NCBI GenBank assembly: GCA_016186945.1 | Contig: JACPKR010000008.1 | Span: forward strand, 3,950 to 67,949 | Reading direction: 5' to 3' | DNA from: Deltaproteobacteria bacterium | Lineage (GTDB): Bacteria; Bdellovibrionota_B; Oligoflexia; Oligoflexales; Bog-1112 | Length of the DNA: 64,000 bases | In this document: positions 821 to 62,093 of the stretch, piece after piece | How positions within the stretch are numbered: position 1 is the first letter of the stretch | Layout of the letters: each line of letters opens with the position of its first letter | Position numbers and translations under genes: made by a program | Notes under the pieces: model-generated | Databases searched by the model: none | What the model saw: the letters and a program-made list of their open reading frames with translations, nothing else | Told to the model about the DNA's origin: nothing

Positions 821-891
821 AGAAGGGAGTTCTTGGAGGAAGCAGCTGCGCAGTTTCCTCCAAACCACCTCCTTGCCAAGGCGGCTTACGC
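821..891 (-). repeat. F1 palindromic element, short form (core A + TIR-like end)
   Basis: + strand reads CTTGGAGGAAGCAGCTGCGCAGTTTCCTCCAAACCACCTCCTTGCCAAGGCGGCTTACGC. Sits in the aceB/nadE divergent intergenic region. Confidence 0.85.
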
Positions 892-915
892 CGCAACGAA
901 TAAAAGGAAGGGTCC

Positions 916-2553
916 GTGCCGCATTCACAGATTAAAATCGCACTCGCACAGGTCAATTTCCTCATGGGCGACATAGAAGGAAACATGAGGCGCATGATTA
1001 AGTTTGCAGGGGAAGCAAAACGCGCTGGTGCCGCTCTTATTGCCTTTCCCGAGTTGGGTATTACAGGATACCCCCCGCAAGACCTGCTTCTGCGTCAGGA
1101 ATTGTACGAACGCGTAAATAAAGCACTAAGCCAATTAAAGGAAGAGTGTCGAGGGATCGACCTTCTGGTGGGCTATCCCGAGCAGGAAGGAAAGGTGCGG
1201 TATAATGCCGCAGCATTCATTAGAGATGGCAAAATTCTTGCTAATTACCGAAAGCAGTGTCTCCCCAACTATGGGGTTTTTGACGACCGTCGCTATTTCA
1301 CACCCGGGAGCGCCCCCTGTGTGGTTGAAGTTAAGGGAGTCTTCGTGGGAGTGCTGATTTGCGAAGATATCTGGTACCCCGAACCCATCCAACAAAGTAA
1401 AAAAGCAGGTGCAGAACTTTGCATCTGTTTGAACGCGTCGCCTTTCGATCGAGACAAGGCACAGTCGCGTAAACAAACACTGAAAAGCCGTGTGCAAGAA
1501 AGCGGACTGCCTGTCGCCTACGTTCAGTGGGTGGGTGGACATGATGATCTGGTTTATGACGGTGGGTCAATGGTGCTTGATCAGGCCGGGACGCTCTGCC
1601 AAGATGCTGGGTTTTTCAAAGAATCGCTCCTGATAGCTCCATTCAAACGGACGAAGGAAGGGCTGCGGGTTGTTTCGGGACCGCTTCCTCCAGAAATGCC
1701 GACAGAAGCAAGAATTTACAACGCTCTTGTTCTCGGTGTCCGTGATTACATTCAAAAGTCAAGCTTTGATCGCGCCCTCATCGGCCTGTCTGGTGGGATT
1801 GACTCTGCTCTCACTCTTGCCATCGCCGTCGATGCGTTGGGAAAAGATAACGTGACCGCCGTGATGATGCCCTCTCGCTTTACCTCGGACTTGAGCATTC
1901 AAGCAGCCGATGAACAGGCAAGACTGTTGGGCGTGAAATTGCTCCAGATTTCGATCGAGCCAACGTTCCAGGCGTTCCTCTCAAGCTTGGGAATCGAGGA
2001 AAAAGACATAACGAGTGTCCCCTCGCAAAATATCCAGGCGCGGTGCCGTGGCGTTATCCTCATGGCCCTCTCCAATCAGACGGGAGCCATTGTGTTAGCC
2101 ACCGGGAACAAAAGCGAACTCGCAGTCGGTTACTCAACTCTCTACGGAGACTTGGTAGGTGGATTCTGTGTGCTAAAGGACGTTCTGAAAACGTTTGTAT
2201 ATAAACTGGCACACTACAGAAACTCGCTCTCCCCAGCCATTCTAAAAAACATTATAGATCGCGAGCCAACCGCTGAACTTGCACCGGGACAGAAAGATCA
2301 GGACACCCTTCCTCCCTATCCGGTCCTTGATAAGATTATCGAAGGCTACATTGAAAACAACAAAAGTATCGAAGATCTAGTGGCGGAAGGTCTCGACGAA
2401 GCTACCGTGAGAAAGACGACAAGGTCTATCGACCAGAATGAATATAAGCGCAGACAGTCGGCAACAGGTTTGCGGGTGACTAGCTGCGCTTTTGAGAGAG
2501 AGCGACGTTATCCAATCGTCTCAGGATTTCGAAAGGTTATCTATAGTATTTAA
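916..2553 (+). CDS. nadE: glutamine-dependent NAD+ synthetase (CN-hydrolase domain + NAD synthase domain)
   Basis: 545 aa. N-terminal nitrilase-like domain (IALAQVN...FPEL...LICEDIW), C-terminal SGGIDS PP-loop. GTG start preceded by AAGGAAGG. Confidence 0.9.
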   Translation: MPHSQIKIALAQVNFLMGDIEGNMRRMIKFAGEAKRAGAALIAFPELGITGYPPQDLLLRQELYERVNKALSQLKEECRGIDLLVGYPEQEGKVRYNAAAFIRDGKILANYRKQCLPNYGVFDDRRYFTPGSAPCVVEVKGVFVGVLICEDIWYPEPIQQSKKAGAELCICLNASPFDRDKAQSRKQTLKSRVQESGLPVAYVQWVGGHDDLVYDGGSMVLDQAGTLCQDAGFFKESLLIAPFKRTKEGLRVVSGPLPPEMPTEARIYNALVLGVRDYIQKSSFDRALIGLSGGIDSALTLAIAVDALGKDNVTAVMMPSRFTSDLSIQAADEQARLLGVKLLQISIEPTFQAFLSSLGIEEKDITSVPSQNIQARCRGVILMALSNQTGAIVLATGNKSELAVGYSTLYGDLVGGFCVLKDVLKTFVYKLAHYRNSLSPAILKNIIDREPTAELAPGQKDQDTLPPYPVLDKIIEGYIENNKSIEDLVAEGLDEATVRKTTRSIDQNEYKRRQSATGLRVTSCAFERERRYPIVSGFRKVIYSI

Positions 2554-2558
2554 GAGAA

Positions 2559-2705
2559 TCAATTTTGGGAAAAACTTTTTGAAAAAAGTTCCCCTCCACT
2601 GTCATCCCGCGGCTTGACCGCGGGATGACAGTGGCAGCCTCTCTCGAAAAAGTTGGATCCCGCGGCTTGACCGCGGGATGACACGTAGAATTTTTTCCCA
2701 AATTG
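2559..2705. repeat. F2-related composite palindromic element with two nested GTCATCCCGCGG hairpins
   Basis: Terminal inverted repeat CAATTTTGGGAAAAA / TTTTTTCCCAAATTG. Perfect 17-bp stem CCACTGTCATCCCGCGG-CTTGA-CCGCGGGATGACAGTGG at 2596-2634 and a second 9-bp-stem copy at 2657-2679. Fills the gap between the convergent nadE and 2707-4467 stops. Confidence 0.85.
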
Positions 2706-2706
2706 C

Positions 2707-4467
2707 TTATCTTGTAGCACTATAGTCGAACCAGCGTTTCCAAAATGGCTTGGAAAGATCCTCTAATTTAGCCTGCTCGTACTGGTTCAGAACAATGCCT
2801 TTGCTTTTCACATAGCGACCCAGGTGTCGGAAGAAGCGGTCTGACTTGCCGAAATTCCACTGTCTGTGAAGAAGGTGGGGAATGTTGCGCTCAATCGCAG
2901 TTCTGACCTCAGTCTCCGACAAGCTCGTTCCTCGACCGTAGGCCTGTAAATTACCTGACAGGAACTTGTCCAACTTGCTTGTGTGGCGTATGTCACGAAC
3001 GACTCCATCCACGAATGAACTATCGCTCATTGTATCGCTGTACGTTTCTTTAAACTTCTTTAAGGCTTTGATCACCACGTCATTGCTGGGTAGGTAAGCC
3101 ACGATTCCTTCTTCTTCAGTGACCATAAGGCGCTTCATGAGAGCCATACTTTGCAAGGCGGAGTGGAGCGCACGGTTCATTTTCAACTCAGCGTCGACCA
3201 ACTTAGAAAAGGATGAAACAAACAGCCCGTCGATTTCACCCCCTTCGTCAAGAACATGACGGAGGTTGTCTTTGAAAGCCTGACGATTGAACGCCAAACT
3301 GCGGGTAGACTCGACGAAGAGTCCGAGGCTATTCGTGTACAAGTCATGTGCACGTCGTCCCGTGTTGAGAAGGTTGAGATATTCTTCGTCAACCTTGATT
3401 TTGCTGGAACGGTAAGAAGATGTGGACGTCAAGATTGTCGGTAACGTTCCGTAGCCGAGATTGACGGCAAAACGGGGGTCGTAAATTCCGGGTGTTTCAA
3501 TAGTGGCCAATGTGCTACCAGTCGCTGCAATACCGATATTCAGTTTAGCGATTTCGTTCAAAACGGCTACGATACGAAGTTCCACGGAACGTTCAACAAC
3601 CTTACTGAGGAACGTTTCTTTGTTGGCGTACCGTTCTTCAAGGTCTTCTAATTGACGAACGATTGTGGGAAATTCTTCAAGGTTGCGAATGTTGACGCGC
3701 GTAGCTCCCAGGTTACCATGTTCATCCATTTTCAGAGCCATTGTATATGCCAGTTCATCGAAGAGCAGTTTGAGTTCTCCACGGTTCAGCGCCATTTCTG
3801 TCGCAACATCTCCCGTAAAGGCCAACATCGTATTGATGTGACGCTCGGATTGAGGAAACAAGCGTTTCAATAAAAGCGCATGCACCATGTAGAAGTTGCG
3901 AATTTCAAAATCTTGAATACCCTTATGTACGGCAATGAACAAATTCTCAGCTCGGTAATATTCGTCCAATGCCATTTTCATGAAGAGCAGGCGTGAGGCA
4001 TCGTAAGCCTTGTAACTGTTTACAAGGTTTAACCACGTCTGAGGGAGAACAAATCCGAAGAGGTTTCTAAACAAGTTATGCACATTGGGGGAAATTCCGT
4101 CTCCGAATTTAATGCTGACTGAAGGAAACACAGCTCCCCAACTTGTATGACGCCCCATCCCTGACCTGTATAATTCTTCGATCTTATGTCGAACGGGGAT
4201 CCCCTGGCCGAGCACTCGCTCGATGACGTCCTTCATGCTGTAGAATTCGTCCCGTGTTCCCAGTAAATGACTGCCGTATTGCCGTTTCGTTCTGTCCCAC
4301 GTCGGGTTCTCATACGCATCCCGGAAAAAAAAGAGATTCTTTTCCCCAAGAACCGTGGAAATTTCTCCGTCAGACATGACGAGCTCCGGTTCAATGGGGG
4401 TAATCCGTGCCCATGAAAGCGACGCTGACGTCAACAACACAATGGGGATAAAATGCTTCATCTTCAT
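2707..4467 (-). CDS. secreted protein, possibly a TolC-like outer-membrane factor with a C-terminal extension
   Basis: 586 aa. Signal peptide MKMKHFIPIVLLTSASLSWA. Long helical segments and short beta segments (AVFPSVSIKFGDG, AVNLGYGT) in a pattern reminiscent of OEP/TolC repeats. By-eye impression only. Confidence 0.35.
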   Translation of the reverse strand: MKMKHFIPIVLLTSASLSWARITPIEPELVMSDGEISTVLGEKNLFFFRDAYENPTWDRTKRQYGSHLLGTRDEFYSMKDVIERVLGQGIPVRHKIEELYRSGMGRHTSWGAVFPSVSIKFGDGISPNVHNLFRNLFGFVLPQTWLNLVNSYKAYDASRLLFMKMALDEYYRAENLFIAVHKGIQDFEIRNFYMVHALLLKRLFPQSERHINTMLAFTGDVATEMALNRGELKLLFDELAYTMALKMDEHGNLGATRVNIRNLEEFPTIVRQLEDLEERYANKETFLSKVVERSVELRIVAVLNEIAKLNIGIAATGSTLATIETPGIYDPRFAVNLGYGTLPTILTSTSSYRSSKIKVDEEYLNLLNTGRRAHDLYTNSLGLFVESTRSLAFNRQAFKDNLRHVLDEGGEIDGLFVSSFSKLVDAELKMNRALHSALQSMALMKRLMVTEEEGIVAYLPSNDVVIKALKKFKETYSDTMSDSSFVDGVVRDIRHTSKLDKFLSGNLQAYGRGTSLSETEVRTAIERNIPHLLHRQWNFGKSDRFFRHLGRYVKSKGIVLNQYEQAKLEDLSKPFWKRWFDYSATR

Positions 4468-4841: not shown

Positions 4842-7800
4842 ATGCAAGAAGATGAAAACAAATTGAGTTTTAAAAGACGAGATTTTGTTCGAGGTCTAGC
4901 AGCAACCGGTGCATTTGTTTCTGCACAGGCTGCTTTTGGTGCACCCATACGTTACTTTAAACCCACGCATGTAGAAAACCCACTCGCCTTCTATCCAAAC
5001 AGGGACTGGGAAAAAATTTACAGGAATCTGTTTGAGCCTGACTCTTCGTTTGTCTTTTTGTGTGCTCCGAACGACACACATAATTGTTTGTTGAGAACCT
5101 ATGTCAAGAACGGTGTCGCTGTACGCATCGGACCCACGTACGGTTATGGAAAAGCGACTGATCTCGACGGCAATAAGGCATCCTCACGATGGGATCCCAG
5201 AATTTGCCAGAAGGGTTTGGCAATGGTTCGTCGCTTCTACGGAGACCGTCGTGTTAAAGCTGCTATGGTGCGGAGGGGTTACAGACAGTGGGTCAACGAT
5301 GGATTCCCGAGAGATGCGAAGACAGGAAAGCCAGACGCTAAGTACTTCGAAAGGGGGAAGGATAAATGGGTGAGAGTCGAGTGGGATGAGGCCTACGACA
5401 TTACCGCACGCGCCCTCGACAATATTACTCGTACCTATTCGGGAAAGCAGGGAGAGTCCTACCTCCGTGAGCAAGGCTATGATCCTGCCATGATTGAAGC
5501 CACGGAGGGTGCAGGAACCCAGACTATAAAATTTCGTGGTGGCATGGCGTTTCTTGGCTCCACCCGCATCTTCGGCCTTTACCGTTTTTGTAACATGCTT
5601 GCTTTGCTCGACTCGAAAATACGAGGGGTGGATGAAAGCAAGGCGGTTGGCGCTCGTGGTTGGGATAGTTATAGTTGGCATACAGACCTGCCTCCCGGCC
5701 ATCCAATGGTAACAGGGGCACAGACGAACGATTTCGACCTCTTCGCGGCCGACCATGCGAATCTTATTCTTGCATGGGGTATGAATTGGATTACCACCAA
5801 AATGCCCGATTCGCATTGGATGACGGAAGCGCGTCTCAAAGGTGCAAAAACTGTTGCCATCACCGTGGAATACAGCGCCACCGCTTCAAAAACCGATGAA
5901 GTTGTTATTATCCGCCCAGGGACCGACCCGGCTTTCGCCCTGGGTCTGGCCCAGGTCATCATTGACAGGAAGCTCTACGACGAAGAGTTCGTGATGAACA
6001 ACACCGACCTGCCGTTCCTTGTTCGCACCGATACTCTTCAACCGCTTCGCCCTGAAGAAGTGATAGAGGGATACAAAGCCCCTGAATTGAAAAGTTTGAA
6101 AGTCTTGAAAAAAGGCGACAAACCAAACAATCTTCAAGACAATATCCAGTCAATTCCTGAAGCCATGCTGGGCGAATTCAAGCCTTTCGTAGTCTTCGAC
6201 AAGAAATCAAAGAAATTAGTCGCCGTCACGCGTGATGAGTACGGTGCCCACTTCATGAAGACGGGAGTCAAGCCAGATCTGAAAGCCAGTCAGAAGGTAA
6301 AAACTGTCGATGGCAAGACGGTGGAAGTCAGGACAATCTTCGATCTTACCGTCGAATACCTGAACAAGAATTTCACGCCCAAGCAAACTTCCAAACTTAC
6401 CAACGCTCCTGAAAAGGCCATCATCTCCCTTGCCACACAGATTGCGAAGAACAAGGAAAAGACACTCTTTGCTTGTGGGATGGGTCCCAATCAGTTCTTC
6501 AACTCGGATTTGAAGGATCGAGCTATTTTCCTCGTCGCAGCGTTGACGCGCAACATCGGCTTTCCAGGAGGTAACGTCGGCAGCTATGCAGGCAATTACA
6601 GGGCAGCATTGATAGGTGGTGAGCCTGTTTATGCGATGGAGGATCCCTTCCACCCGCAACTGGAAAAGGGAGGAAAGGTCAAGCTCGGCAAATTCCTTCA
6701 TTACGAGTCCCTTCACTACTTCAACTACGGTGACAGACCTTTGCGTATAGGCAAAACCCTTTTCACGGGCAAAGGGCATGTACCGACACCGACGAAGGCC
6801 ATGTGGCTTAACAATTCCAACTCCGTCATCGGTAACATCAAGTGGCATTTCGATGTTGTTAACAATACGCTTCCCAAGTTGGAAATGATCGCCTATGCCG
6901 ACTGGTGGTGGACAGGATCTTGCGAGTATTCGGACATCGTTTTTGGTGTCGACAGTTGGGGTGAATTCAAGGCCCCCGACATGTGTGGCTCATGCACGAA
7001 CCCGTTCGTGTCCATTTGGCCACAGACTCCCCTACCTCGTATTTTTGACACAAAGACTGACATGGACATACTTGCTGGTGTGGCTAAGCGTTTGGGAGAA
7101 ATCATCGAAGAGCCACGAATGGAGCAAATGTGGAAATTTGTGTTCGACAACGACGTCCATGAGTACCTTCAACGCATCATCGATCATTCCTTCACGTTGA
7201 AAGGTTACAATATTCACGATCTTGAGAAAAAAGCACAGGAAGGCATTCCCGCTCTGATGCAAAACCGCACCTACCCACGCATTTCATCTTACGAACAAGC
7301 GAAGTCGGAACAACCCTGGCATACGAAATCGGGACGTCTGGAATTCTACAGACCGGAGCAGGAATTCCTCGATAACGGAGAAAACCTGATCATCTATCGC
7401 GAGCCAATCGACTCGACACCGTACGAACCCAATGTGATTGTCGCCCACGAGCACATCGCCATCAGACCGAAGAGTCCCAAAGACTTGGGTCTTGATCCGA
7501 ACGATTTGTCGGTGGAAGTTAGGCAGGTTCGTAACGTCCTCAAAACACCGGACGAAGTCGTCAACTCAAAACACCCGCTGCGGCTGAAACTTTACACCCA
7601 CGTCTACCACACTCCCAAGTACCGGCACGGGGCGCACTCTACACCTGTTGACACGGACTATACGTCTGTCTGGTTCGGACCCTTTGGTGACGTTTACCGT
7701 CATGACAAACGGATGCCCTCCTGCACAGAAGGCTTTGTCGACATCAACCCACTCGATGCCAAGGAACTGAAGCTGGAAGACGGGGACTACGTTTATGTCG

Positions 7801-8318
7801 ACGCGGATCCGGAAGATCGTCCCTACAGGAATTTCAAGAAAGATACGGAGGAATATAAGGTCGCTCGCCTGATGTTACGTGTCCGCTACTACCCTGGCAC
7901 ACCACGAGGGATTGCACGCACTTGGCACAACATGTATGGCGCAACGTTCGGAAGCGTTCGCGCTCACGAAAGTCGCGCTGACGGTTTGGCGAAAAGTGCG
8001 GAAACAGGGTACCAATCGATGTACCGATACGGAAGCCATCAAAGCGCCACCCGTGCCTGGCTGCGTCCCGTTCACATGACGGAAACACTGGTACACAAAG
8101 GTATGTTTGGTCAGGAAATTGGCAAAGGCTTTGCCCCAGATATTCACTGTCCGGTTGGTGCGCCACGAGAAGCATTCGTCAAGTTCACCAAAGCAGAAGA
8201 TGGTGGAATGGGTGGCCAAGGAAAATGGCGTCCTGCATCGCTCGGTTTCCGTCCGACTTACGAAAATGTGGCAATGAAAGAATATTTGAAAGGCAGCTTT
8301 CTTAAAGTGAAAGCTTAA
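4842..8318 (+). CDS. Tat-exported molybdopterin (bis-MGD) oxidoreductase alpha subunit, Nar/Nxr clade of the type II DMSO reductase family
   Basis: 1158 aa. Twin-arginine signal [20 protein letters not shown]0-type motif C74-x3-D78-x3-C82-x39-C122. SWHTD282LPPGHP...ILAWGMNW...MPDSHW...[13 protein letters not shown]...[11 protein letters not shown] is collinear with the E. coli NarG segment around the Mo-ligand Asp. Confidence 0.85.
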
Positions 8319-8332
8319 GGGGAGAAACGAAC

Positions 8333-9463
8333 ATGGCAAAAGTTAAAAATTGGCAAATCAATCGTGAGATGGAATACCCTTACGAGGAACATAGGCCGAA
8401 AAAACAGTGGGCGATCGTTTTCGACCTCAACAAATGTATCGCCTGTCAAACCTGCTCTATCGCATGTAAGACGACTTGGACCAGCGGCAAGGGCCAGGAG
8501 TACATGTTCTGGAACAACGTCGAAACAAAGCCTTACGGAAGTTACCCTCTGGCTTATGACCTTCGCGTCCTGGAACAGCTCGGCGCGCAGGAGTGGGAGA
8601 AACAGAAACCCTACCAAGGGAAAACTATTTTCGAAGCTGCACCCCCCAATGAGCGGGTTGTCCATTTTCATCCGAAAGATGAAGACTGGATGTATCCAAA
8701 CATAGGTGAGGATGACTGCACGAAAAATGTGCCCGCTGGCGATCATTTGGAACTTCCGCACGACAAGTGGTTTTTCTACCTGCCGAGGACTTGCGCTCAC
8801 TGCACCTACCCCGCTTGCCTTTCCGCCTGTCCCCGGAAGGCAATCTACAAACGGGAGGAAGATGGAATCGTCCTGATCGACCAGTCCAGGTGCAAAGGTT
8901 ACGGGGAATGCGTACGAGCTTGCCCCTATAAAAAGTCGATGTACAACCCTTACACTAGGGTCAGTGAGAAGTGCGTAGGCTGCTACCCCGCAGTGGAGCA
9001 AGGAAAACAACCTATGTGCGTGCAGAACTGCATCGGTAAAATTCGCGTCATGGGCTTCATCAACCCGCCGTGGAAAGCAAGGGAAGACAACCCGATCGAC
9101 TACCTCGTACATAAAAAACAGATTGCTCTCCCTTACTACCCGCAACTTGGGCTGGAGCCAAACATTTACTACGTTCCCCCCATTCATGCAGACCGTAAAT
9201 ATCTGCGTCAGATGTTTGGTCCCCATGTTGATGACGCGATTGAACGTTACAAGAAACTAAAGGAAGATACGAAAACACAGGGTCTGCTCGTCCTCATGGG
9301 CGGCACAGACAAAATCATGCACAGCTTCAAAGTCAACGACAGAACAGCGTTCGGCTACGACGAAAAAGGGGAGGAAGTGGTAAGCAGTCCTCTCGTCGAA
9401 CCTTTGATTGAACGCCCCGCCTTTGATACGAAGGTCGGTGCCATCCGTAACAATACACCGTAA
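8333..9463 (+). CDS. iron-sulfur beta subunit (NarH/NxrB-like, four Cys clusters)
   Basis: 376 aa. CIACQTCSIACK, CAHCTYPACLSACP, CKGYGECVRACP, CVGCYP...CVQNC. Immediately follows the alpha subunit. Confidence 0.85.
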   Translation: MAKVKNWQINREMEYPYEEHRPKKQWAIVFDLNKCIACQTCSIACKTTWTSGKGQEYMFWNNVETKPYGSYPLAYDLRVLEQLGAQEWEKQKPYQGKTIFEAAPPNERVVHFHPKDEDWMYPNIGEDDCTKNVPAGDHLELPHDKWFFYLPRTCAHCTYPACLSACPRKAIYKREEDGIVLIDQSRCKGYGECVRACPYKKSMYNPYTRVSEKCVGCYPAVEQGKQPMCVQNCIGKIRVMGFINPPWKAREDNPIDYLVHKKQIALPYYPQLGLEPNIYYVPPIHADRKYLRQMFGPHVDDAIERYKKLKEDTKTQGLLVLMGGTDKIMHSFKVNDRTAFGYDEKGEEVVSSPLVEPLIERPAFDTKVGAIRNNTP

Positions 9464-9473
9464 GGAGGCTGAT

Positions 9474-10322
9474 ATGAAATTTCTCGATAGAAAATTGGTA
9501 ATAGGTCTAAGTGTCTTTTACTCACTCAACGTAACAGCAATCGTAGCTCCCTCCGTAAAAGGGGATTTAAGCAAGCCAAGTTTGGATGAGACAATCTGGG
9601 CGACAGCTAAAGAAGAAACCGTTACGCTCATGGCGCAGCCCATGGCTATACCTCGACCCGCAGAGACAGCAACAGCACAGGTTAAGGTAAAGGCGGTGCA
9701 TAACGATTCGTGGATTGCCTTCCGTCTTAGCTGGGAGGATAAAGAGAAAAGTGAAGCGGGCAAACTGGGCGAGTTTTCCGATGCTGTTGCTGTGCAATTT
9801 CCTGTAAAGGACAACAAAAGCCCTCCGCCTGTTTTCATGGGGATGAAAGATAACCCCGTGCATATTTTCCACTGGCGTGCGCAATACCAGATCGATAAGG
9901 AAAAAGGCAAGAGGGAGATGAAGGATATTTACCCCAACATGAATCCAGACATGTACCCGATGGAATTCAAAGACGAGGGCCATCTGACAGGTTTGACGGA
10001 TGAAAAGCGGGAAATATTCTCACACGGCCGAGCCGCAGGAAACCCACAGTCGTACGCAAAAGCAGGTGTGGATGAAATCTTCGCAGAAGGGTTTGGCACT
10101 AGCTCGGTGATCAAGAATGTCGAAGCCGTTGCACATGGAGAATGGCAGAAGAGCGGCTGGACCGTCGTCATTTCCCGTCCTCTGGTGAGAGAAGAAGGCT
10201 CACACCTTAAAGTTGGTGAGGACACCTTTGTCGGGTTCGCTGTCTGGCAGGGTGGCAAAGATGAAGTCGGTTCACGTAAGTCTGTAACCATGCAATGGAC
10301 CCCACTGTCCATCGCAAAATAA
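9474..10322 (+). CDS. heme-b gamma subunit of type II DMSO reductase family enzymes (EbdC/DdhC/NxrC-like)
   Basis: Start moved to ATG 9474 (RBS AAGGAGG at 9462-9468). N-terminal Sec signal/anchor. WIAFRLSWED...AVAVQFPV...HIFHWRA block typical of this subunit family. Position in operon. Confidence 0.65.
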   Translation: MKFLDRKLVIGLSVFYSLNVTAIVAPSVKGDLSKPSLDETIWATAKEETVTLMAQPMAIPRPAETATAQVKVKAVHNDSWIAFRLSWEDKEKSEAGKLGEFSDAVAVQFPVKDNKSPPPVFMGMKDNPVHIFHWRAQYQIDKEKGKREMKDIYPNMNPDMYPMEFKDEGHLTGLTDEKREIFSHGRAAGNPQSYAKAGVDEIFAEGFGTSSVIKNVEAVAHGEWQKSGWTVVISRPLVREEGSHLKVGEDTFVGFAVWQGGKDEVGSRKSVTMQWTPLSIAK

Positions 10323-10332
10323 AGGAACTTCC

Positions 10333-43241: not shown

Positions 43242-43343
43242 CCCCCCAAAAAACTTTAACTATTGAAGTTTTTAAAAAGGGGCTTGGGGAAATAACTTTT
43301 TTCAAAAAGTTTGTCCCCAAATTGATTATCTTGAATATTATAG
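43242..43343 (+). repeat. F2 element (hairpin modules 3 + 4) inside the moeA-moaD intergenic space
   Basis: CCCCCCAAAAAACTTTAACTATTGAAGTTTTTAAAAAGGGG-CTTGGGGAAATAACTTTTTTCAAAAAGTTTGTCCCCAA-ATTGATTATCTTGAATATTATAGG. Confidence 0.85.
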
Positions 43344-43345
43344 GC

Positions 43346-45591: not shown

Positions 45592-45842
45592 CCTTTCTGT
45601 GTGTTTATAAGTAAGGTGGTTTAATATCACAAAGAAAGACAGATATATGTCTAAAAAATGCACGGTTCTAAATACGGAAGCATGTCCGGCGAGAGAAAGC
45701 GTCGCCTTCAGAAATTTGGAAAAACTTTCTTTGTTTAATAGCTACTTAAGAAATGTTGTGTATCCAAATCTTGCAAAGCAAGATTGTCCGAATAAAAATG
45801 ATCTAACCAACGAAACATTTTAACTTTTGGAGTGGTGCCACG

Positions 45843-48134: not shown

Positions 48135-48143
48135 GCCACAAAG

Positions 48144-48303
48144 AGCCACTTGGGGCAAGGAGGTGGTTTGGAGGAAACTCCGCAGCTGGTTCCTCCAAGA
48201 AATCCCTTGGGGGAGCGACCCTTCGCTTTGCTCAGGGCAGGCTTTTCCCTCGCCCCCCCAACCCCCCCTCTCCCTATTTGCCCCAAGTGGCTTACGCATT
48301 ACG
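48144..48303 (+). repeat. F1 element, longest copy (A + expanded B + right TIR)
   Basis: AGCCACTTGGGGCAAGGAGG...CTCCCTATTTGCCCCAAGTGGCTTACGCATTACG. The module-B hairpin loop is expanded by about 31 nt (CCCTTCGCTTTGCTCAGGGCAGGCTTTTCCC). Begins 9 bp after the nrdJ stop. Confidence 0.9.
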
Positions 48304-48389
48304 AGCCGATAAAATCGCCGCTTGCAAACGGCGGTGTTTTTGGCTATAAAGCCTCTAAACAACCCGCTAAAATTACATAAAGAATTTTT

Positions 48390-52682: not shown

Positions 52683-52733
52683 TTTTTACTCCTCATGTTA
52701 GGATTGATAGGTTTGCAAGTAATGTGTAAACCC

Positions 52734-52866
52734 TTTGGGGCAAGGAGGAGGTTTGGAGGAAACTGCGCAGCTGGTTCCTCCAAAGAAATCCCTTGAGGGA
52801 GCGACGGTTCCCTCGCCCCCCCAAACCCCCCCCTCCCTTTTTGCCCCTAGCGGCTTACGGGTTACG
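52734..52866 (+). repeat. F1 element, long form (A + B + right TIR), diverged
   Basis: TTTGGGGCAAGGAGGAGGTTTGGAGGAAACTGCGCAGCTGGTTCCTCCAAAGAAATCCCTTGAGGGAGCGACGGTTCCCTCGCCCCCCCAAACCCCCCCCTCCCTTTTTGCCCCTAGCGGCTTACGGGTTACG. Confidence 0.9.
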
Positions 52867-52945
52867 TTTGTAAGTCGCGTATGGATTACCTAAGTTTCTT
52901 CATCGTGGATAGTTTTATTTTGTAGCCCCTTAATCGAGAGATAAA

Positions 52946-53462: not shown

Positions 53463-56400
53463 ATGTTGTTTCGAATGCGTTGCTTGATTCTCGTTGTCGG
53501 TTTTTTTCCTTCCCTGATTAGTTTTGCTCATATCCATGAAGACGAACTCGGTCTGGAAGATTCTCAAGACTTGCGAGAGGCTGTTGCTCAGCTCCTTCGA
53601 CCAGACGGGAGTCTTTCCCTCAAGGAACTTGGACTCTTTGAAAATGAAATACAGAATAAACGTGACGAACTGTACAAACTTCTGGTTGACACCGAAAAAG
53701 CTGGCGGCATGTCGCAAGACGAAGCGGAGGACGAAGCCCTAGGCCAAAAGCAAATCTTTGTCCTCGAGTTTATCCTCGATAGGCTAGAGGACTTAAAGCA
53801 TGAAGCTGACCCTATTCAACGCTTTGCCTTAGCAAAGCAGATTTTGCGGTTGTCGTCGACTTTTTCGGCGGATGGAGCGCCTCCCAGCATTCAGCTCGCA
53901 TTTGAAATAGGTAGAGTCGCTTTTCTTGAATCCCATAATGTAGCTCTGGATGAGAGAAAGACCGGCCCAGCTGCAAATCTTGTAAACCCTGCCCACCAAC
54001 AGTACTTCAGCAAGGACGAACTTAGGCAAAAAATTGAAAGGCATGAAGATATATCCGTTTACGATCCTCCCAACTCATCTTTCTGGGCCAAGCCTGCCTC
54101 TATTGCTCAACAAAGTGTGCTGAAGCCGATGGAAATCAATAGTGCGGTGCCCCAGACTTTCACCTACAAGAAGGTTATCAAATCTGACCATCACCCGAAG
54201 ATTAAAACTTTCTCACGTTCTCCCAGTGGCAAGAAGATTGAATGGAAGATGAAATTTGGCCGTGAAGTGGAAACAGAGTATTTTGCGACTCGATGGATGG
54301 AGTTGATGGGTTTCAACAGCGACGAGTCCTACTTTGTCTCAAACGCAAAGGTCTATTTTGAGAACGAGGACGAGTTCAAGAGCATGGTCAGGGAATGGGT
54401 CAAATTTTACCCAAAGGAATTGGATACACCATCGAATTTTATCGTAGAAGAAGGATCCGACTCCGACGGCTTTTTCGTCGTTTTTCACAAAACACTCATC
54501 GAAGCTCGCCCCAAAGACACGGAACGAGTCGGACCCATGCACTTAACCTTGTTGGGAAATCATGAGAGGCGAGAGGTACGTGCCCAACTTCTCCTACAAG
54601 CGTTCATAAACAACACGGATATTAAGGAATCTCATAATAACAAAACAAAGATGGTCAAAGACAGTCAAGGGCGTTGGCATGTTCAGGAGTTGATACACGA
54701 CCTTGGCAAATCATTCGGCAGCCTCCTTGTTTCTAACTTTCCGAACGGATTTTCCTGGAACTTTCTGAAAACCAGCCGGGGAAAACTTCGAATCGACTAT
54801 CGACGCTACCACTACATTTCACGAGACAAAAACCCATTCATGCAAGCCAGTTATTCCGATCTTAAATGGGCCGCCCGTCTTCTTGTCCAGGTCACGCCAG
54901 AACAGATTCGCACCCTCATAAACAATTCTGGATGGCCTGAACCTGTAGGTCATCTCTACTTCGAAAAGCTTACAACTCGCCGTAATGAAGTCGTGAGGGA
55001 ATTCCATCTGGAAGGAGAGTACCTGGATGGTCAAAAAGTTAACCTATGGCCAGAGGTAAAACCAAAGGAATTCAATTTTGGTGCTGCTGTCATAGAGGGA
55101 GAGCTTTTCAAGGATTACAAGTCGCATCCTCAGGATATCAACTACGCGAACGCCGTCGGAGTGAATTTCGATTTTAACGGCGTTCTCCTACGCCTTTTAG
55201 TCAACAGTGCCTCGATGGGTATTGAAAAGGCTCCCTTAGAGCGGATTTTTACTTTGAGAGACGATCACGGTTCCTTCGTTCTCAAGAATTATTTGGGTGG
55301 CATGCACGTTGTGATACATCGTGAAATTACTCGCAACGAAAATACGAATGACGATAGCAAACTTTGGGTCGTTAAAGACCGGCTAGATGTGGGTCTTGCT
55401 GTTGGACTGGGTGTAGACATCCCGGTCGGACCTGGCGGGTTCGATCTCAAAGCGAGATCAATCGTAGGCAAACGGTACACCCTCACACATTATACCGGGC
55501 AACTTGTTGGGGCCGCGAAAAGTAAATTCAACCGAGTATTTCGCCTCCCCTTCCAGCCTCAGGAAGTCATCGAAGCCCTTAGTCCTGGGGAAGAAGTTAC
55601 TGATGGCTTTTTCATAAGCCTAAAGTTGCAGGAAGAATTTGAACTAGGCAACACATGGACTGCTGCTGTGGGGCCTGGACTCGGCCAAGAAACACGTTTC
55701 CTCGTCCACACAGGGGTAAAAAACCTAGACAATGGGAAAATCGAGGTCGCCCATCAAAAGAGTAACGAACTCGAAGGCGAGTTCTACGTCTTTGCACAAT
55801 TCTTCAAAATTTTGAAATTGGAATTCTTCCGGGCATCTATGATGTTGGGGCAATCGAAGGGTCAAGCATACACCTTTGATTTTTCCACGCCTCCCTCAAT
55901 CGACACACAGCGTGCCTACAATCGTCTCGTTTACAACCATAAAGACGATCTAGCGGAGCAATACAAAATACCGTTCGCCACCATGCGTTCGAATTTCAAA
56001 GGGAAAGGCTGGTGGTTTGGAGTCTTAGCCGGCCTAGGATCCCAATACCACGGAACTTATGCTTTAAGGACCGACCCGGACCACACCATGCACAGAACCT
56101 TCGAATACAAGATTGAAAAGGAACGAGAAAATCCACTCTTTCTGAGAAGGAGGGCTTACCGAGTTCTGACTTCGCTAGACTTCGGGGACAACAGCTTTAC
56201 AGATCTCACACGAAGCTCCCTCGTGCTGATGATGGAATGGGAAAACGAAAAGACCGCCAGTAGCTACATGAAAAGAATGCTGGAAAAGGTGAACGCAACG
56301 GTAGGTGATACTTCCTTCGTAGAATTCACCCCTGAACGATGGGCTGAAAAGCACCTGGGGAACACATACACAATTTTCCAAGTGAGGCTAAAGGATGATG

Positions 56401-56666
56401 CAATCGCCTGCCTTTTGGAAGCCATCGGCTGTGCTCAAGAAAGCGAGGGACACTTGATGAAGTGGGACCTCACCCATATACGCAAGGCTCATGATCCGGC
56501 GACCCGTTACAAGCGCCTTAGCCGCTGGCTGGCACACATGTTCACACGTCCCCAGAACTGGGAAAAAGTTCGCACCTACGTCGGGGATGAGAAGTTCGCC
56601 AAGGAACTCTTCGTCCAAGGCGAATTTCTTCCTACGGGCAAGCCCATTCACGTTTTGAAATTATAA
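53463..56666 (+). CDS. large secreted protein with a central kinase-like motif set
   Basis: 1067 aa, signal peptide. KIEWKMKFGREVETEYFATR (Lys/Glu pair), FINNTDIKESHNN (nt 54603-54641) and HDLGKSFG (nt 54696-54719) resemble kinase catalytic-loop and DFG-like elements. Beta-rich C-terminal half. Confidence 0.5.
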   Translation: MLFRMRCLILVVGFFPSLISFAHIHEDELGLEDSQDLREAVAQLLRPDGSLSLKELGLFENEIQNKRDELYKLLVDTEKAGGMSQDEAEDEALGQKQIFVLEFILDRLEDLKHEADPIQRFALAKQILRLSSTFSADGAPPSIQLAFEIGRVAFLESHNVALDERKTGPAANLVNPAHQQYFSKDELRQKIERHEDISVYDPPNSSFWAKPASIAQQSVLKPMEINSAVPQTFTYKKVIKSDHHPKIKTFSRSPSGKKIEWKMKFGREVETEYFATRWMELMGFNSDESYFVSNAKVYFENEDEFKSMVREWVKFYPKELDTPSNFIVEEGSDSDGFFVVFHKTLIEARPKDTERVGPMHLTLLGNHERREVRAQLLLQAFINNTDIKESHNNKTKMVKDSQGRWHVQELIHDLGKSFGSLLVSNFPNGFSWNFLKTSRGKLRIDYRRYHYISRDKNPFMQASYSDLKWAARLLVQVTPEQIRTLINNSGWPEPVGHLYFEKLTTRRNEVVREFHLEGEYLDGQKVNLWPEVKPKEFNFGAAVIEGELFKDYKSHPQDINYANAVGVNFDFNGVLLRLLVNSASMGIEKAPLERIFTLRDDHGSFVLKNYLGGMHVVIHREITRNENTNDDSKLWVVKDRLDVGLAVGLGVDIPVGPGGFDLKARSIVGKRYTLTHYTGQLVGAAKSKFNRVFRLPFQPQEVIEALSPGEEVTDGFFISLKLQEEFELGNTWTAAVGPGLGQETRFLVHTGVKNLDNGKIEVAHQKSNELEGEFYVFAQFFKILKLEFFRASMMLGQSKGQAYTFDFSTPPSIDTQRAYNRLVYNHKDDLAEQYKIPFATMRSNFKGKGWWFGVLAGLGSQYHGTYALRTDPDHTMHRTFEYKIEKERENPLFLRRRAYRVLTSLDFGDNSFTDLTRSSLVLMMEWENEKTASSYMKRMLEKVNATVGDTSFVEFTPERWAEKHLGNTYTIFQVRLKDDAIACLLEAIGCAQESEGHLMKWDLTHIRKAHDPATRYKRLSRWLAHMFTRPQNWEKVRTYVGDEKFAKELFVQGEFLPTGKPIHVLKL

Positions 56667-56671: not shown

Positions 56672-56751
56672 TTGGAGCAAGGAGGTGGTTTGGAGGAAAC
56701 TGCGCAGCTGGTTCCTCCAAGAAATCCCTATTTGCCCCAAGTGGCTTACGC
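56672..56751 (+). repeat. F1 element, A + right TIR (module B absent)
   Basis: TTGGAGCAAGGAGGTGGTTTGGAGGAAACTGCGCAGCTGGTTCCTCCAAGAAATCCCTATTTGCCCCAAGTGGCTTACGC, 5 bp after the stop of 53463-56666. Confidence 0.9.
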
Positions 56752-60327: not shown

Positions 60328-61294
60328 TGGAAGAATCTCTGCCTTTACAATTGATTCGCTTCTCTTCCTTCTGATCGTGTGGGGTTTTTATTGGTTTCGC
60401 TCTGATGCTTTGAGTCGATTTCTCCTTTCCCTTCTCACTCTCTCTGCTCAAAAAACACAGTTACTAAGCTGGTATGCGGTCAGCGTCGTTTTTATCTTTG
60501 CACCTGCGATTTTAAGTTTGTTTTTGTATTTACGATCGGCAACACCTGGACAGGCAATCCTTCGGATGCGCACAACGGGAGCGTACAACGATAGCCGGCT
60601 TAACCTTCTTCAAAGTTTCATGCGAATGTTTCTGACTGTCTTGTCTGTCTTCCCCTTGAATTTCATTCCGCAATTTTTGTCTCTTTTAAGGGAAGATAGA
60701 AGGAGCCTCATTGACCTGGTGACGGGGACAAAAGTGGTCTCCCCAACAATTTCTGAAAGGCCGGTGAAAGCTTCGCCTGTACTCGGTTTTGTCCTTTTCC
60801 TGCTTGCGATCTATCCAACCGGTAGTCTTATCCTGATGCTTGTCGGAGCTACTTATCTCGGAAACGGAGTCTTGCTTGGTGGAACTGCAGAAGAGAGGGC
60901 GCGGTGGCTGATGGAGAAACAGGGCACTCCTCATGAATACCGCCGAAATTCGCCCGAAGATGCCTTTGAAGCTCTAAAAATGGCCCTCCGTACAAAAGAT
61001 GAAGCTGCTCTTTTCGAAATCCTTAGCTTGCCCAGTCAGTTTATTTTCCGCACTCTTCAGCTAAGTGGATCTTGGATGGAGGACATGCCAACAGAGATTG
61101 GTTTTGAGAGAAAGGAAATGACTTCAAAGAGTCTCTGCAAAATCTTCTTCCGGGAAATTGAGGAGGGGGGGCCTAGCACACGTGTCTTTTTCATGACATT
61201 CTCTAAAGAAGAGGGCGAGTGGAAACTTGACCTGCTTCGCTTCCTACAGGATCCCGAAAATCCTTTTGTGGGAAGAGAACGGAAGAGTGAGTGA
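60311..61294 (+). CDS. RDD-family membrane protein with C-terminal soluble domain
   Basis: 327 aa. N-terminal RISAFTIDSLLFLLIVW RDD-like segment. 4-5 TM helices. Confidence 0.5.
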   Translation: MPPHNSGRISAFTIDSLLFLLIVWGFYWFRSDALSRFLLSLLTLSAQKTQLLSWYAVSVVFIFAPAILSLFLYLRSATPGQAILRMRTTGAYNDSRLNLLQSFMRMFLTVLSVFPLNFIPQFLSLLREDRRSLIDLVTGTKVVSPTISERPVKASPVLGFVLFLLAIYPTGSLILMLVGATYLGNGVLLGGTAEERARWLMEKQGTPHEYRRNSPEDAFEALKMALRTKDEAALFEILSLPSQFIFRTLQLSGSWMEDMPTEIGFERKEMTSKSLCKIFFREIEEGGPSTRVFFMTFSKEEGEWKLDLLRFLQDPENPFVGRERKSE

Positions 61295-61327
61295 ACATAA
61301 AACAACATGAATAGAAGGAGAGAAAGA

Positions 61328-61966
61328 ATGGACGGATCAAAAACGATGGTTCGTTTCCTTGGGACTCTTGTCTTTGTTTTCTTTTTCCAGTTGCCTGACT
61401 TGGCGAAGGCTATGGACTCGATGTCGGAGAGTGAAGAGTCGGAACATCCCCGTTTTGGCGTGTGGGCAGGTGCAGGATCAGGAGTGATGATTTCGGATAA
61501 AAAATCGATGGCTTTTCATCCCAGTGCAGGGTTTGAAATATTTGTAGGAGAAGGGCGTCAACTCTCTTTTGGATATATGGCTGTTTTCCCGATTTCGTCG
61601 GAAGAAACAACTTTAAAGGATGGCACACAGTCAAATGTTTTGCGTATGATACACTACTTTCCCGTTTTTCGTTTCTTTTTGGTACCTGATACTCTGTCCT
61701 TTCGAGTGTCTCCTGGGATCTCGTTACAACATAGTGGAACTATGATGGCCGGAAATAATGACAGAGAGAGTTCCGCTTCCACTGCGGTCTTCGCGGGATT
61801 GGAATACTTCTTCCAGGTGGAACCCCGCTTAGATATCGGGGTGGAAGGAACTTATGAATACATTTCAAAAAACTCGGACAGTTTTTCTCGCGTCCTTGTT
61901 GGGGCAATCAATTTGAATGTACACTATCGATTCGGTGGATTCGGAATGCACGGACACCACAAATAG
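61328..61966 (+). CDS. small outer-membrane beta-barrel protein
   Basis: Start ATG 61328 (RBS AGGAGA). Signal peptide ...QLPDLAKA. Alternating strand pattern. Confidence 0.5.
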   Translation: MDGSKTMVRFLGTLVFVFFFQLPDLAKAMDSMSESEESEHPRFGVWAGAGSGVMISDKKSMAFHPSAGFEIFVGEGRQLSFGYMAVFPISSEETTLKDGTQSNVLRMIHYFPVFRFFLVPDTLSFRVSPGISLQHSGTMMAGNNDRESSASTAVFAGLEYFFQVEPRLDIGVEGTYEYISKNSDSFSRVLVGAINLNVHYRFGGFGMHGHHK

Positions 61967-61970
61967 GTAA

Positions 61971-62093
61971 CGTAATGCGTAAGCCACTTGGGGCAAGGAG
62001 GTGGTTTGGAGGAAACTGCGCAGCTGGTTCCTCCAAGAAAAATCATGGGGGAGCGACGGTTCCCTCGCCCCCCCAAACCCCCCTCTCCCTATT
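61971..62093 (+). repeat. F1 element with complete left TIR (A + B; right end truncated)
   Basis: CGTAATGCGTAAGCCACTTGGGGCAAGGAGGTGGTTTGGAGGAAACTGCGCAGCTGGTTCCTCCAAGAAAAATCATGGGGGAGCGACGGTTCCCTCGCCCCCCCAAACCCCCCTCTCCCTATTC. Confidence 0.9.

Follow-up and report, generated by a model that had tools for sequence, protein, structure and literature searches.

Bacterial MITEs have been documented as partial copies without terminal inverted repeats (TIRs) or direct repeats, as in-frame fusions and with terminator-like modules (PMC10969869). The Rickettsia palindromic elements (RPEs), of ∼150 bp, can lie in frame inside conserved protein genes and place their peptide at a structurally tolerant position (PMC10969869). 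Members of the IS66 family have ends that begin with GTAAGCG, inverted repeats of 20–30 bp and 8 bp target duplications (PMC11946415), one such end being GTAAGCGTCCGGCGAACTCACCTT (PMC12888890).

The repeat family described here, F1, was analysed in a 64 kb stretch of DNA (the window) from the MAG of an uncultured bacterium. F1 resembles bacterial MITEs such as Correia (CREE) of Neisseria and Chunjie of Geobacter in its size class (∼100–200 bp), its TIRs of ∼26 nt, the lack of a transposase gene and its occurrence in dozens to hundreds of scattered copies, for the most part intergenic and many of them partial, which would form a stable hairpin if transcribed. The target duplication of Correia is TA, whereas the flanking repeat of F1 is 8 bp at the one testable copy. 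F1 further differs from known bacterial MITEs in that no sequence similarity to them was detected, in its very high density of about one copy per 4.3 kb and in a centre that is far better conserved than the termini. With the RPEs it shares a palindromic structure and the placement of 16 element-coded residues in a predicted disordered loop of MoeA; however, it belongs to a different phylum, shows no peptide similarity (searches with element peptides matched one MAG only) and is mostly intergenic or at ORF ends, the single internal coding insertion found being a fragment and not a whole element. Like BOX of Streptococcus pneumoniae and the BIMEs of E. coli, F1 contains recurring sub-motifs that vary in number per copy and lies at gene boundaries, but it has clear long TIRs, one likely target duplication and no GTAG-headed REP unit, and truncation and microhomology deletion account for much of its modularity. 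In one orientation, hairpin B precedes UUUCUU and lies directly after stop codons, which recalls SPRITE, the pneumococcal repeats that resemble rho-independent terminators; in F1, however, only one module in one orientation is terminator-like, with a weak U-tract, and neither hairpin A nor the whole element is. An IS66-family parent is suggested by the GTAAGCC contained in the TIR, by tips that start with GTAA and by the 8 bp direct repeat at one complete copy, but the likeness is limited to 6–7 nt (6/7 compared with GTAAGCG) and is internal to the F1 TIR, the actual tip of which is GTAATGC.

Anatomy of the F1 element

As read from the alignment of copies, the complete element is a noncoding palindrome of ∼148 bp that comprises 26 nt TIRs (CGTAATGCGTAAGCCACTTGGGGCAA, with tips GTAA...TTAC), an SD box, hairpin A, hairpin B and a C-tract. 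The inverted repeat continues inwards with weaker complementarity, the SD box (GGAGGTGGTTTGG) pairing with the C-tract, and the two hairpins are internal and unrelated to each other. The SD box reads as a perfect 9 nt Shine–Dalgarno sequence or its complement. The consensus has a predicted folding energy of −92 to −98 kcal/mol (z ∼ −10), and no protein-coding capacity of its own was found in its 148 nt. The stem of hairpin A, given as 7 bp in the preliminary description, is 9–10 bp in length (TTGGAGGAA/TTCCTCCAA). Copies carry one to three SD boxes in tandem arrays, and hairpin B is present, absent or replaced by variants (B1, B2 or expanded). This variation had been described as the presence or absence of whole modules; the variation stands, but it is better read as truncations and microhomology deletions, as in the copy at 56672–56751, which has lost hairpin B and the C-tract through a deletion between TCCC microhomologies.

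The family is well separated from chance matches in the window. The 27 nt core of hairpin A (GGAGGAAACTGCGCAGCTGGTTCCTCC) has 13 matches with at most one mismatch (none expected from 100 shuffles), a 20-mer of the TIR has eight with at most three mismatches (0.01 expected) and the module-B hairpin has five with at most one mismatch (none expected). A sensitive blastn search of the window with a composite full-length element returned the same 15 loci that had been recognized previously and none beyond, covering 2.2% of the window; the loci are unchanged, but several copies reach beyond their earlier limits (those now starting at 11732, 13637, 22131, 25822, 28149, 30650, 35735 and 52719).

Copies in the window and their neighbouring genes

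Both tips are kept in one copy only, on the plus strand at 52719–52865 (GTAATG...GGTTAC), in which hairpin A is perfect and the TIRs have diverged from one another; both inner TIR arms are kept in two more. The first of these, near-complete, lies at 30650–30787 (plus strand) between convergent genes, and its right TIR contains the stop codon of ORF 30781–31734. The second (48144–48303, plus strand) is also near-complete, keeps its right tip intact, lacks the left one and carries a 23 nt insertion in the loop of hairpin B; it is 9 nt from the stop codon of a B12-dependent ribonucleotide reductase gene, the intrinsic terminator of which lies beyond the element (48314–48335). Two copies have a left TIR, an SD box, both hairpins and the C-tract without a right TIR: one on the minus strand at 11732–11849 (TIR from GCGTAAGC), which occupies the divergent pdxH/NarK-like gap and leaves 19 and 53 nt at its sides, and one on the plus strand at 61971–62093, which has a perfect left TIR and separates two convergent genes, the stop codons of which are 4 and −1 nt away. 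The latter also has an improved U-tract. The minus-strand copy at 28149–28262, starting 11 nt past the stop codon of ORF 25960–28137, consists of a degenerate inner TIR, an SD box, hairpin A, the hairpin-B variant B2 (GGGGGAGGCGACGCTTCACTCGCCCCC) and a C-tract, with hairpin B in the terminator-like orientation.

The remaining copies are shorter. A left TIR, an SD box and hairpin A make up the minus-strand copy at 13637–13703, 9 nt past the stop codon of the NarK-like gene; in the truncated copy at 830–891 (minus strand), 24 nt upstream of the nadE start, the left TIR is degenerate and hairpin A has one mismatch. An SD box, hairpin A and the right TIR remain at 56672–56751 (plus strand), 5 nt past the stop codon of ORF 53463–56666. 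At 25822–25888 (plus strand), in a divergent gap, a degenerate inner TIR (the GTGGCAAGG variant) precedes the SD box and hairpin A. The copy at 16685–16731 (minus strand) is core-only (SD box and hairpin A) and lies 5 nt past the stop codon of ORF 14574–16679, while that at 22131–22202 (plus strand) consists of two SD boxes in tandem and hairpin A and directly adjoins the stop codon of ORF 22198–23352. Three SD boxes, hairpin A and half of hairpin B are found at 35735–35838 (minus strand) in the 3′ part of ORF 35055–35846. Two loci are fragments: a solo left terminus (GTAATGCGTAAGCCGCTGGGGGCAAGGAGG) at 21213–21242 (plus strand), 18 nt from the stop codon of ORF 21261–22085, and hairpin B with the C-tract at 44505–44553 (plus strand), in frame within moeA.

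The earlier view that most copies lie near stop codons and the rest in divergent gaps is borne out in its first part, with nine of the 15 within 16 nt of a stop codon or overlapping it, but does not accommodate the copy inside moeA. In co-directional gaps, the copy is closer to the upstream stop than to the downstream start in seven of eight cases. The 3′-located copies share no common orientation with respect to the gene upstream (about five minus and four plus), and housekeeping genes in both orientations flank the elements (nadE, cox, ribonucleotide reductase, moeA, pdxH and nadC).

Coding effects and distribution in the genome

The core had been reported as free of stop codons in all frames, which is literally true; in the 148 nt consensus stops occur only at the TIR tips and as one minus-strand TAG. 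The depletion is weakly unusual compared with dinucleotide-preserving shuffles (P = 0.03–0.1), and the paucity of stops is mostly a composition effect. With almost no stop codons, an element in coding sequence can extend or interrupt the ORF in frame and need not destroy it, as in the MoeA loop and the PstB-like and SCO1-like tails. In MoeA, 16 element-coded residues (KGEGGLGGRGNRRSPK, residues 18–33) lie in frame after the conserved N-terminal helix and before the first strand; the N-terminus upstream is conserved, homologues lack the insertion and the pLDDT of the structure model falls below 50 in this segment only. The fragment is a genuine in-frame coding insertion, placed by the model in a disordered surface loop. 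The copy at 35735–35838 supplies the final ∼37 codons of the PstB-like ABC ATPase ORF, and that at 16685–16731 is read through as the C-terminal tail of a convergent SCO1/SenC-like ORF (16633–17508). In QueA (P0122), 49 element-coded residues precede the Pfam domain, which begins at residue 55. The spurious ORFs anticipated by the preliminary description are apparent in the NCBI annotation, which contains many hypothetical proteins and N-terminal extensions starting inside the element.

Element-encoded peptides are present in 11 + 17 annotated proteins, at least 26 of which are outside the window contig on 20 other contigs. The copy number is raised well beyond the window, with copies on at least 21 contigs that total ∼1.37 Mb. 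All 24 proteins that were looked up and three more carry HYW48_ locus tags or accessions in the range MBI26014xx–26037xx and belong to a single MAG; for the last protein the only name given is ‘MAG: Deltaproteobacteria bacterium’. No element peptide was found in other organisms among 5.8 billion proteins and 1.8 billion representative proteins, and F1 had no match in Rfam or in plasmid, viral and JGI metagenome searches; neither a conserved RNA nor a conserved protein family matched it. The nearest relatives share 54–69% protein identity. F1 is a genuine repeat family and, in these searches, is restricted to one lineage, that of an uncultured Bdellovibrio-like bacterium represented by one MAG.

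Origin of the family and conservation of its centre

F1 is probably a non-autonomous transposon (MITE) family, this being the simplest reading, and its mobility is putative. The MITE-like reading proposed earlier gains support from the TIRs, the small size, the lack of coding capacity, the stable fold and a putative 8 bp target-site duplication, GTTTGCAA at 52711–52718 and GTTTGTAA at 52866–52873 (7/8 identical), with an empirical P of ∼4e-4 per placement at the single both-tip copy, where it was tested. As stated previously, the window contains no transposase, and no transposase domain is present among its ∼57 ORFs. A transposase encoded elsewhere in the genome would recognize the GTAA...TTAC termini and insert the element, duplicating an 8 bp target; an IS66-type enzyme is weakly indicated by this 8 bp duplication and by the GTAAGC motif. 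Copies would persist where they are least harmful, in spacers that are very short in this compact genome, and mostly directly 3′ of stop codons, clear of promoters and ribosome-binding sites. After insertion the tips would erode or be deleted, while the central 41–45 nt remain near-identical.

Conservation is much higher in the F1 core than in the TIRs, unlike what is typical of a decaying MITE. The central 41–45 nt are 99.4% identical across all 13 core copies, whereas the TIRs are ∼75% identical or absent. Ten of the 13 lack one or both recognizable TIR arms and their cores are still perfect (SD box 181/182, hairpin A 349/351); simple neutral decay of a TIR-dependent transposon is not expected to give this pattern. 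Elsewhere in the genome the core peptide EEPAAQFPPNHLLA is invariant in ∼24 copies and the TIR peptide is intact in ∼10. Either gene conversion among many copies or selection may account for the near-identity of the centre.

The same contrast, in the window and in the peptides, would also suit a rather unlikely model in which the ∼45 nt core (SD box and hairpin A) is itself the propagating unit, as in REP/BIME systems, acted upon in single-stranded DNA by a hairpin-recognizing RAYT-type HUH transposase or similar, with the TIRs, hairpin B and the C-tract as optional accessory motifs of a mosaic. The sharply bounded core-only copies (16685 and 22131), the tandem arrays of two or three SD boxes and the recurrence of the GTGGCAAGG variant, with degenerate or absent TIR, at three window loci and in several other proteins are in keeping with it. 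However, the left junction between core and TIR is always at the same base, the ‘TIR-less’ copies at 25822 and 28149 still show inner-TIR remnants, each element has a single hairpin A without inverted REP pairs or a GTAG-type head beside the hairpin, no Y1/HUH transposase domain was found in the window and the 8 bp repeat around one complete copy fits DDE transposition.

That the core is a useful cis-acting element, spread or retained by host selection, is unlikely. It might act as a 3′-UTR stabilizer or terminator, as an RNase target or, through a ribosome-binding (AAGGAGGUG) or anti-SD-mimic (CACCUCCUU) sequence, as a modulator of the translation of neighbouring genes. The extreme conservation of the core between eroded flanks, the perfect 9 nt motif of the SD box and the bias towards positions just past stop codons are compatible with such a role. 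Hairpin B with its U-rich tail also gives the two best terminator-like matches in the 20 kb scanned, the top site being the minus strand of copy 61971, where UGAUUUUUCU follows the hairpin with the improved U-tract, and this orientation occurs directly after stop codons at 28149, 30650 and 61971. Against this, hairpin A has a U-tract in neither orientation, the orientation of the 3′-located copies is mixed, the reductase gene at 48144 retains its own terminator downstream of the element and some copies lie in 5′ regions or within coding sequence. There is no deep conservation, since F1 was not found in any other lineage searched, and gene conversion among short repeats would equally give a homogenized centre with eroded edges.

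That the repeats or their arrangement arose in metagenomic assembly, through chimeric joining at a repeated k-mer or through a contaminating sequence, is very improbable, although the contig derives from a MAG, identical 45 nt blocks can mislead assemblers and the independent check of joins covers a minority of copies. Short-read contigs from other runs are 100% identical to the window between repeats and break inside them; Logan assemblies of five other runs reproduce the flanks at 100% and reach up to 30 nt into the element with the same junctions (contig L001 ends inside the copy at 16685–16731 and L084 starts inside that at 44505–44553). Moreover, the moeA copy has MoeA sequence on either side, all in a single reading frame, TIR variants are flank-specific and differ between loci, and operon order is coherent (cox, nxr-like, moa/moe and pst-like). 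Integron attC-like recombination sites following cassette ORFs would likewise be imperfect palindromes of 60–150 nt located 0–16 nt past stop codons, but this identification is scarcely credible given housekeeping flanks in both orientations, mixed F1 orientation, no RYYYAAC/GTTRRRY core sites seen in the sequence and no integrase domain found in the window.

F1 would have several side effects: mRNA untranslated regions would gain very stable stem-loops, hairpin B would in one orientation resemble an intrinsic terminator just past three stop codons, and gene callers would yield artefactual ORFs and N-terminal extensions. F1 adds a new MITE-like member, with RPE-like and BOX-like traits, to a familiar class of bacterial selfish DNA; its 45-base centre is unusually invariant.

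Copies, anatomy and predicted fold of the F1 element

The F1 repeats are genuine. A sensitive blastn search of the window with a composite full-length element recovered all 15 loci listed in the preliminary description (copies are cited here by their start coordinates) and no others. The 27-nt core of hairpin A gives 13 matches in the window at no more than one mismatch (0 expected), a 20-nt segment of the terminal inverted repeat (TIR) gives eight at no more than three mismatches (0.01 expected) and the hairpin of module B, the earlier name for hairpin B plus the C-tract, gives five (0 expected). The loci stand as first listed, but alignment of the copies shows that several are longer than had been given (e.g. 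30650–30787 and 52719–52866). In total, F1 occupies ∼1.4 kb, or 2.2% of the 64 kb.

A complete element is ∼148 bp in length (consensus 148 nt) and its six-frame translation reveals no independent gene of its own. The left TIR (CGTAATGCGTAAGCCACTTGGGGCAA) is separated from hairpin A by the SD box (GGAGGTGGTTTGG), which reads AAGGAGGTG, a perfect Shine–Dalgarno sequence, and the complement of which is CACCTCCTT, the sequence of the 16S rRNA 3′ tail. Next come hairpin A (stem TTGGAGGAA/TTCCTCCAA, loop ACTGCGCAGCTGG), a 9-nt spacer and hairpin B (GGGGGAGCGA-CGGTTCCC-TCGCCCCC), and the right TIR is preceded by the C-tract, which repeats the SD box imperfectly in inverted orientation. The inverted repeat of the consensus is 26 nt long and perfect; copies 30650, 48144 and 52719 keep both arms. 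The terminus expected to bound any parent transposase gene is GTAATGCGTAAGCCACTTGGGGCAA. The consensus is predicted to fold into one long stem with two side hairpins, with energies of −92 and −98 kcal/mol for the two orientations, compared with an average of ∼−50 kcal/mol for shuffled sequences (z ∼−10). For copy 52719 the fold falls to −68 kcal/mol; compensatory changes were looked for between its two TIRs and none were found, the arms having diverged independently.

At least three variants of hairpin B exist, all with the stem preserved. They are B1, B2, which is found at 28149 and is also the usual one in the rest of the genome, and a version at 48144 whose loop carries a 23-nt insertion. 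In copy 56672, hairpin B and the C-tract have been deleted exactly between two TCCC repeats, and several copies carry tandem SD boxes, two to three each. Much of the apparent modularity, which had been read as the presence or absence of whole modules, therefore reflects truncation, microhomology deletion and local duplication.

Placement among genes and effects on coding sequence

The neighbours of F1 in the window are all ordinary chromosomal genes: nadE, an NXR/ethylbenzene-dehydrogenase-type molybdoenzyme operon, pdxH and pdxJ, an aa3 oxidase operon, a B12-dependent ribonucleotide reductase, moaCB, moeA, mobA and moeB, a pst-like transporter, nadC and others. Domain searches of ∼57 window ORFs revealed neither a transposase nor an integrase nor an HUH domain; for transposases, this had been stated from the sequence. 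Nine of the 15 copies lie within 16 nt of a stop codon or overlap one and three fill divergent gaps, leaving as little as 19 nt to the start codon; the earlier assignment of all copies to these two settings fails for copy 44505–44553, which lies inside moeA. Seven of the eight copies in co-directional gaps are closer to the upstream stop than to the downstream start (binomial P ∼0.035). The orientation of F1 with respect to the upstream gene is mixed.

The copy at 44505–44553, consisting of hairpin B and the C-tract, is in frame within moeA, a gene whose start shares bases with the stop codon of moaCB (ATGA). Residues 1–17 of MoeA (MISYGEAFEKIRGVALS) agree with the conserved N-terminus of the family and residues 18–33 (KGEGGLGGRGNRRSPK) are encoded by the element and correspond to a gap in twenty homologues. 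The AlphaFold model of MoeA has a mean pLDDT of 86, and its sole segment below 50, residues 21–28, is located in the loop joining helix 4–19 to strand 33–36. This is the situation described for the RPEs of Rickettsia (PMC10969869). In a PstB-like ATPase the last ∼37 codons are supplied by copy 35735, and similarity to solved PstB structures stops at residue 220; no remnant of a displaced PstB C-terminus was seen downstream of the copy. The tail of a SCO1-like ORF runs through copy 16685.

On other contigs of the same metagenome-assembled genome (MAG), NCBI starts QueA, KamA, an LEA-2 protein and radical-SAM proteins at an ATG internal to the TIR (MRKPLGA...). The Pfam domain of QueA starts only at residue 55, and these N-termini are most likely to be annotation artefacts; F1 copies can thus sit only a few nucleotides 5′ of true start codons. 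Element-encoded N- or C-termini are found in the annotation of QueA, KamA, HemA, a UbiG-like methyltransferase, LEA-2, phospholipase C and radical-SAM proteins (among the element-containing proteins P0121–P0128 and P0130–P0147), and more than 15 hypothetical ORFs of 45–130 residues on other contigs consist mostly of F1 sequence. The suspicion that read-through of F1 generates spurious ORFs is borne out by dozens of small ORFs and false extensions in the NCBI annotation, where the false N- and C-terminal extensions (QueA, KamA, HemA, UbiG-like, PstB-like and others) should be corrected.

Stop triplets in F1 are limited to a TAA at position 3 and another at position 10 of each tip, together with one minus-strand TAG. 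The scarcity on which the description of a stop-free core was based is real, but is only marginally below that of dinucleotide-preserving shuffles (P = 0.03–0.1) and is therefore not taken as evidence of selection; stop-codon depletion as a sign of selection for coding compatibility was dropped as weak.

Several other features of the window were recorded. A second palindromic repeat family, unrelated to F1, is present at 2562–2599, 11018–11137, 23697–23734, 37057–37176 and 43239–43292. Its members share a near-perfect palindrome of 38 nt (GTGGAGAGGACCTTTTTTTCAAAAAAGTTCCCCTCCAC), with CCTCCCCCCAAAAAACTTTAGATATTGAAGTTTTTGAAAAGGGGCT frequently coming next; identity between the 110-nt units 11018–11127 and 37057–37166 is 86%, and the copies lie in 3′ gaps of genes and resemble bidirectional terminators. 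Two identical 27-nt hairpin units (ATCCCGCGGCTTGACCGCGGGATGACA; 2604–2630 and 2657–2683), 53 nt apart, are located between the convergently oriented nadE and ORF 2707–4467. The molybdoenzyme operon (4842–11019 and 11903–13627, with an adjoining NarK-like transporter) is of the type-II DMSO-reductase family and encodes a 1158-residue α subunit resembling NXR and ethylbenzene dehydrogenase, an Fe–S β subunit, an EB_dh haem subunit and a NarJ-like chaperone; nitrite/nitrate metabolism would be unexpected for a Bdellovibrionota-like MAG. Molybdenum-cofactor genes (a moaC–moaB fusion, moeA, mobA and ThiF-rhodanese) are located at 40469–45663. A secreted-looking ankyrin-repeat protein (48390–49370), directly 3′ of copy 48144, contains a 30-nt tandem duplication, with the repeat at 48628–48687. 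ORFs 53463–56666, 25960–28137, 28990–30633 and 2707–4467 (1067, 725, 547 and 586 residues, respectively) have no Pfam or NCBIfam match.

Host lineage and genome-wide spread

The MoeA of the window and NCBI protein MBI2601809.1 (‘MAG: Deltaproteobacteria bacterium’) have identical sequences, and the next-best homologue is 54% identical. Among GTDB species genomes, CtaD finds its best relatives in Bdellovibrionales/Oligoflexia MAGs (69% identity). From these values we conclude that the host lineage is isolated.

Since F1 is nearly free of stops, gene callers read through it, and the element peptides were used as a probe of protein databases. The six reading frames, concatenated, gave 11 matches among 5.8 billion proteins and one frame of copy 11733–11852 gave 17 HMMER matches among 1.84 billion representative proteins. 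All 24 matches that were looked up, and three more by name, carry HYW48_ tags or accessions within MBI2601433–2603746 and belong to one MAG; the remaining match is labelled just ‘MAG: Deltaproteobacteria bacterium’. No F1 peptide was found in another organism in either database. The matches are spread over 21 contigs, including that of the window, which together span ∼1.37 Mb. At least 26 further copies are present on the 20 other contigs, so that the copy number is elevated well outside the window, as expected for a dispersed repeat.

Exact matching of the 27-mer core to GTDB species genomes showed no loci among the matches listed, and zero matches were obtained in JGI metagenome contigs (exact scans for the core and for the TIR), in IMG/VR (SD box plus stem) and in plasmids (blastn with the F1 consensus). 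Rfam, consulted for a conserved functional RNA matching F1, gave no hits at the gathering threshold over the whole window and a single chance hit (E = 0.83) over 48100–48350. The window contains no tRNAs. Full-text literature searching on the core sequence, and on Bdellovibrio MITEs, returned nothing relevant.

Logan contigs, which are short-read assemblies from other sequencing runs (SRR12113383, SRR12113384, SRR12113422, SRR12113424 and SRR12113430), are 100% identical to the window between repeats and end inside hairpin A or hairpin B, which confirms the F1 junctions and shows that the raw data contain multiple copies of the repeat. Positions 1–14 of one of these (L085, from SRR12113384) are a Nextera adapter remnant (GTGTATAAGAGACAG). 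Just two of the 15 window copies are detectable through annotated proteins, compared with 26 detected elsewhere, which extrapolates roughly to ∼200 copies; scaling the window density to a genome of ∼2.4 Mb gives, equally roughly, ∼550. By such rough extrapolation, the genome contains of the order of a few hundred copies. The family explains why short-read assemblies of this organism break every few kilobases.

Termini, relationship to known repeats and the invariant core

Both tips survive in one copy alone, 52719–52865. On its two sides lie GTTTGCAA and GTTTGTAA, a direct repeat matching at 7/8 positions (empirical P ∼4 × 10−4 per placement, for this one copy), with junctions ...GCAA|GTAATG and GTTAC|GTTTG, which may mark a target duplication. 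We infer that F1 has been mobile and that an enzyme mobilised it. IS66-family elements have ends beginning GTAAGCG and 8-bp duplications (PMC11946415; example in PMC12888890) and an inverted repeat of 20–30 bp (PMC11946415). The F1 tip likewise starts with GTAA, but its actual sequence is GTAATGC; GTAAGCC, a 6/7 match to the IS66 end, lies at TIR positions 9–15, and the remainder of the inverted repeat does not resemble the published one (PMC12888890). The sequence resemblance to IS66 may thus serve as a lead and does not establish membership. At the solo left terminus 21213–21242, GTGTCG ends 4 nt before the element and restarts 1 nt after it, forming a short direct repeat that may be either a footprint or the product of a deletion.

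Like bacterial MITEs, F1 is small, TIR-bearing and dispersed, with partial copies and, at one locus, a putative target duplication. Like RPEs, it can sit in frame within genes, and the in-frame insertion into a conserved ORF at a tolerant position by which RPEs are recognized is found at MoeA 18–33; its peptides show no similarity to RPE families and match this MAG alone among the 5.8 billion proteins and 1.84 billion representatives. It varies in sub-motif number as BOX and BIME elements do and, like SPRITE, carries a module resembling a terminator. The features that define REP/REPIN elements are absent from F1: hairpin A is preceded by GCAAGGAGGTGGT with no GTAG head, and the F1 tips read GTAA; each element has one hairpin A, unrelated in sequence to hairpin B, rather than a REPIN-type inverted pair, and no Y1_Tnp-type (RAYT) domain occurs in the window ORFs. 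Correia elements (CREE) were rejected since the flanks of copy 52719 have no TA duplication and the searches run gave no sequence similarity, and integron attC sites since F1 has mixed orientation and housekeeping neighbours and the window has no integrase domain. An sRNA gene family and an uptake sequence were rejected on orientation, gene context and length. We conclude that F1 is a MITE-like family that joins the known bacterial repeat types, without sequence relatives in the searches run. Its unusual properties are its density, its invariant core containing a Shine–Dalgarno sequence and its isolated host lineage.

Identity along F1 is strongly non-uniform. In the 13 copies with a core (SD box plus hairpin A, 41–45 nt), 181 of 182 SD-box positions and 349 of 351 hairpin A positions are identical, compared with ∼75% for the inner TIR where present, and ten of the 13 lack at least one recognizable TIR arm. 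In copy 52719 the TIR arms differ at 7/26 positions and hairpin A is perfect. Genome-wide, the encoded peptides show the same pattern: ∼24 copies carry EEPAAQFPPNHLLA without change, whereas PSGLRIT is intact in ∼10. This distribution counts against a simple picture of a decaying MITE. One possibility is gene conversion among many copies, homogenizing the shared centre while the element erodes at its edges; others are selection on the core and propagation of the core as a unit in its own right.

A terminator-like scan of 44–64 kb placed hairpin B, in the minus orientation and followed by UUUCUU or UGAUUUUUCU, at its two best sites, and hairpin B follows stop codons in a terminator-like orientation at 28149, 30650 and 61971. 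The reductase gene retains its own terminator 3′ of copy 48144, and hairpin A has a U-tract in neither orientation. We regard it as rather unlikely that the 41–45-nt centre is either a TIR-independent propagating unit or a domesticated cis-element kept by selection at hundreds of gene boundaries. If domesticated, it might serve as a 3′-UTR stabilizer, or as a decoy for ribosomes or the 16S tail that tunes translation or the coupling of adjacent genes in a very compact genome.

The contrast between core and termini could serve to tell concerted evolution and selection apart in short bacterial repeats. F1 provides an RPE-style in-frame insertion into a conserved enzyme outside Rickettsia, and adds a very dense MITE-like family (∼2% of the sequence) from an uncultured, deeply branching Bdellovibrionota-like lineage.
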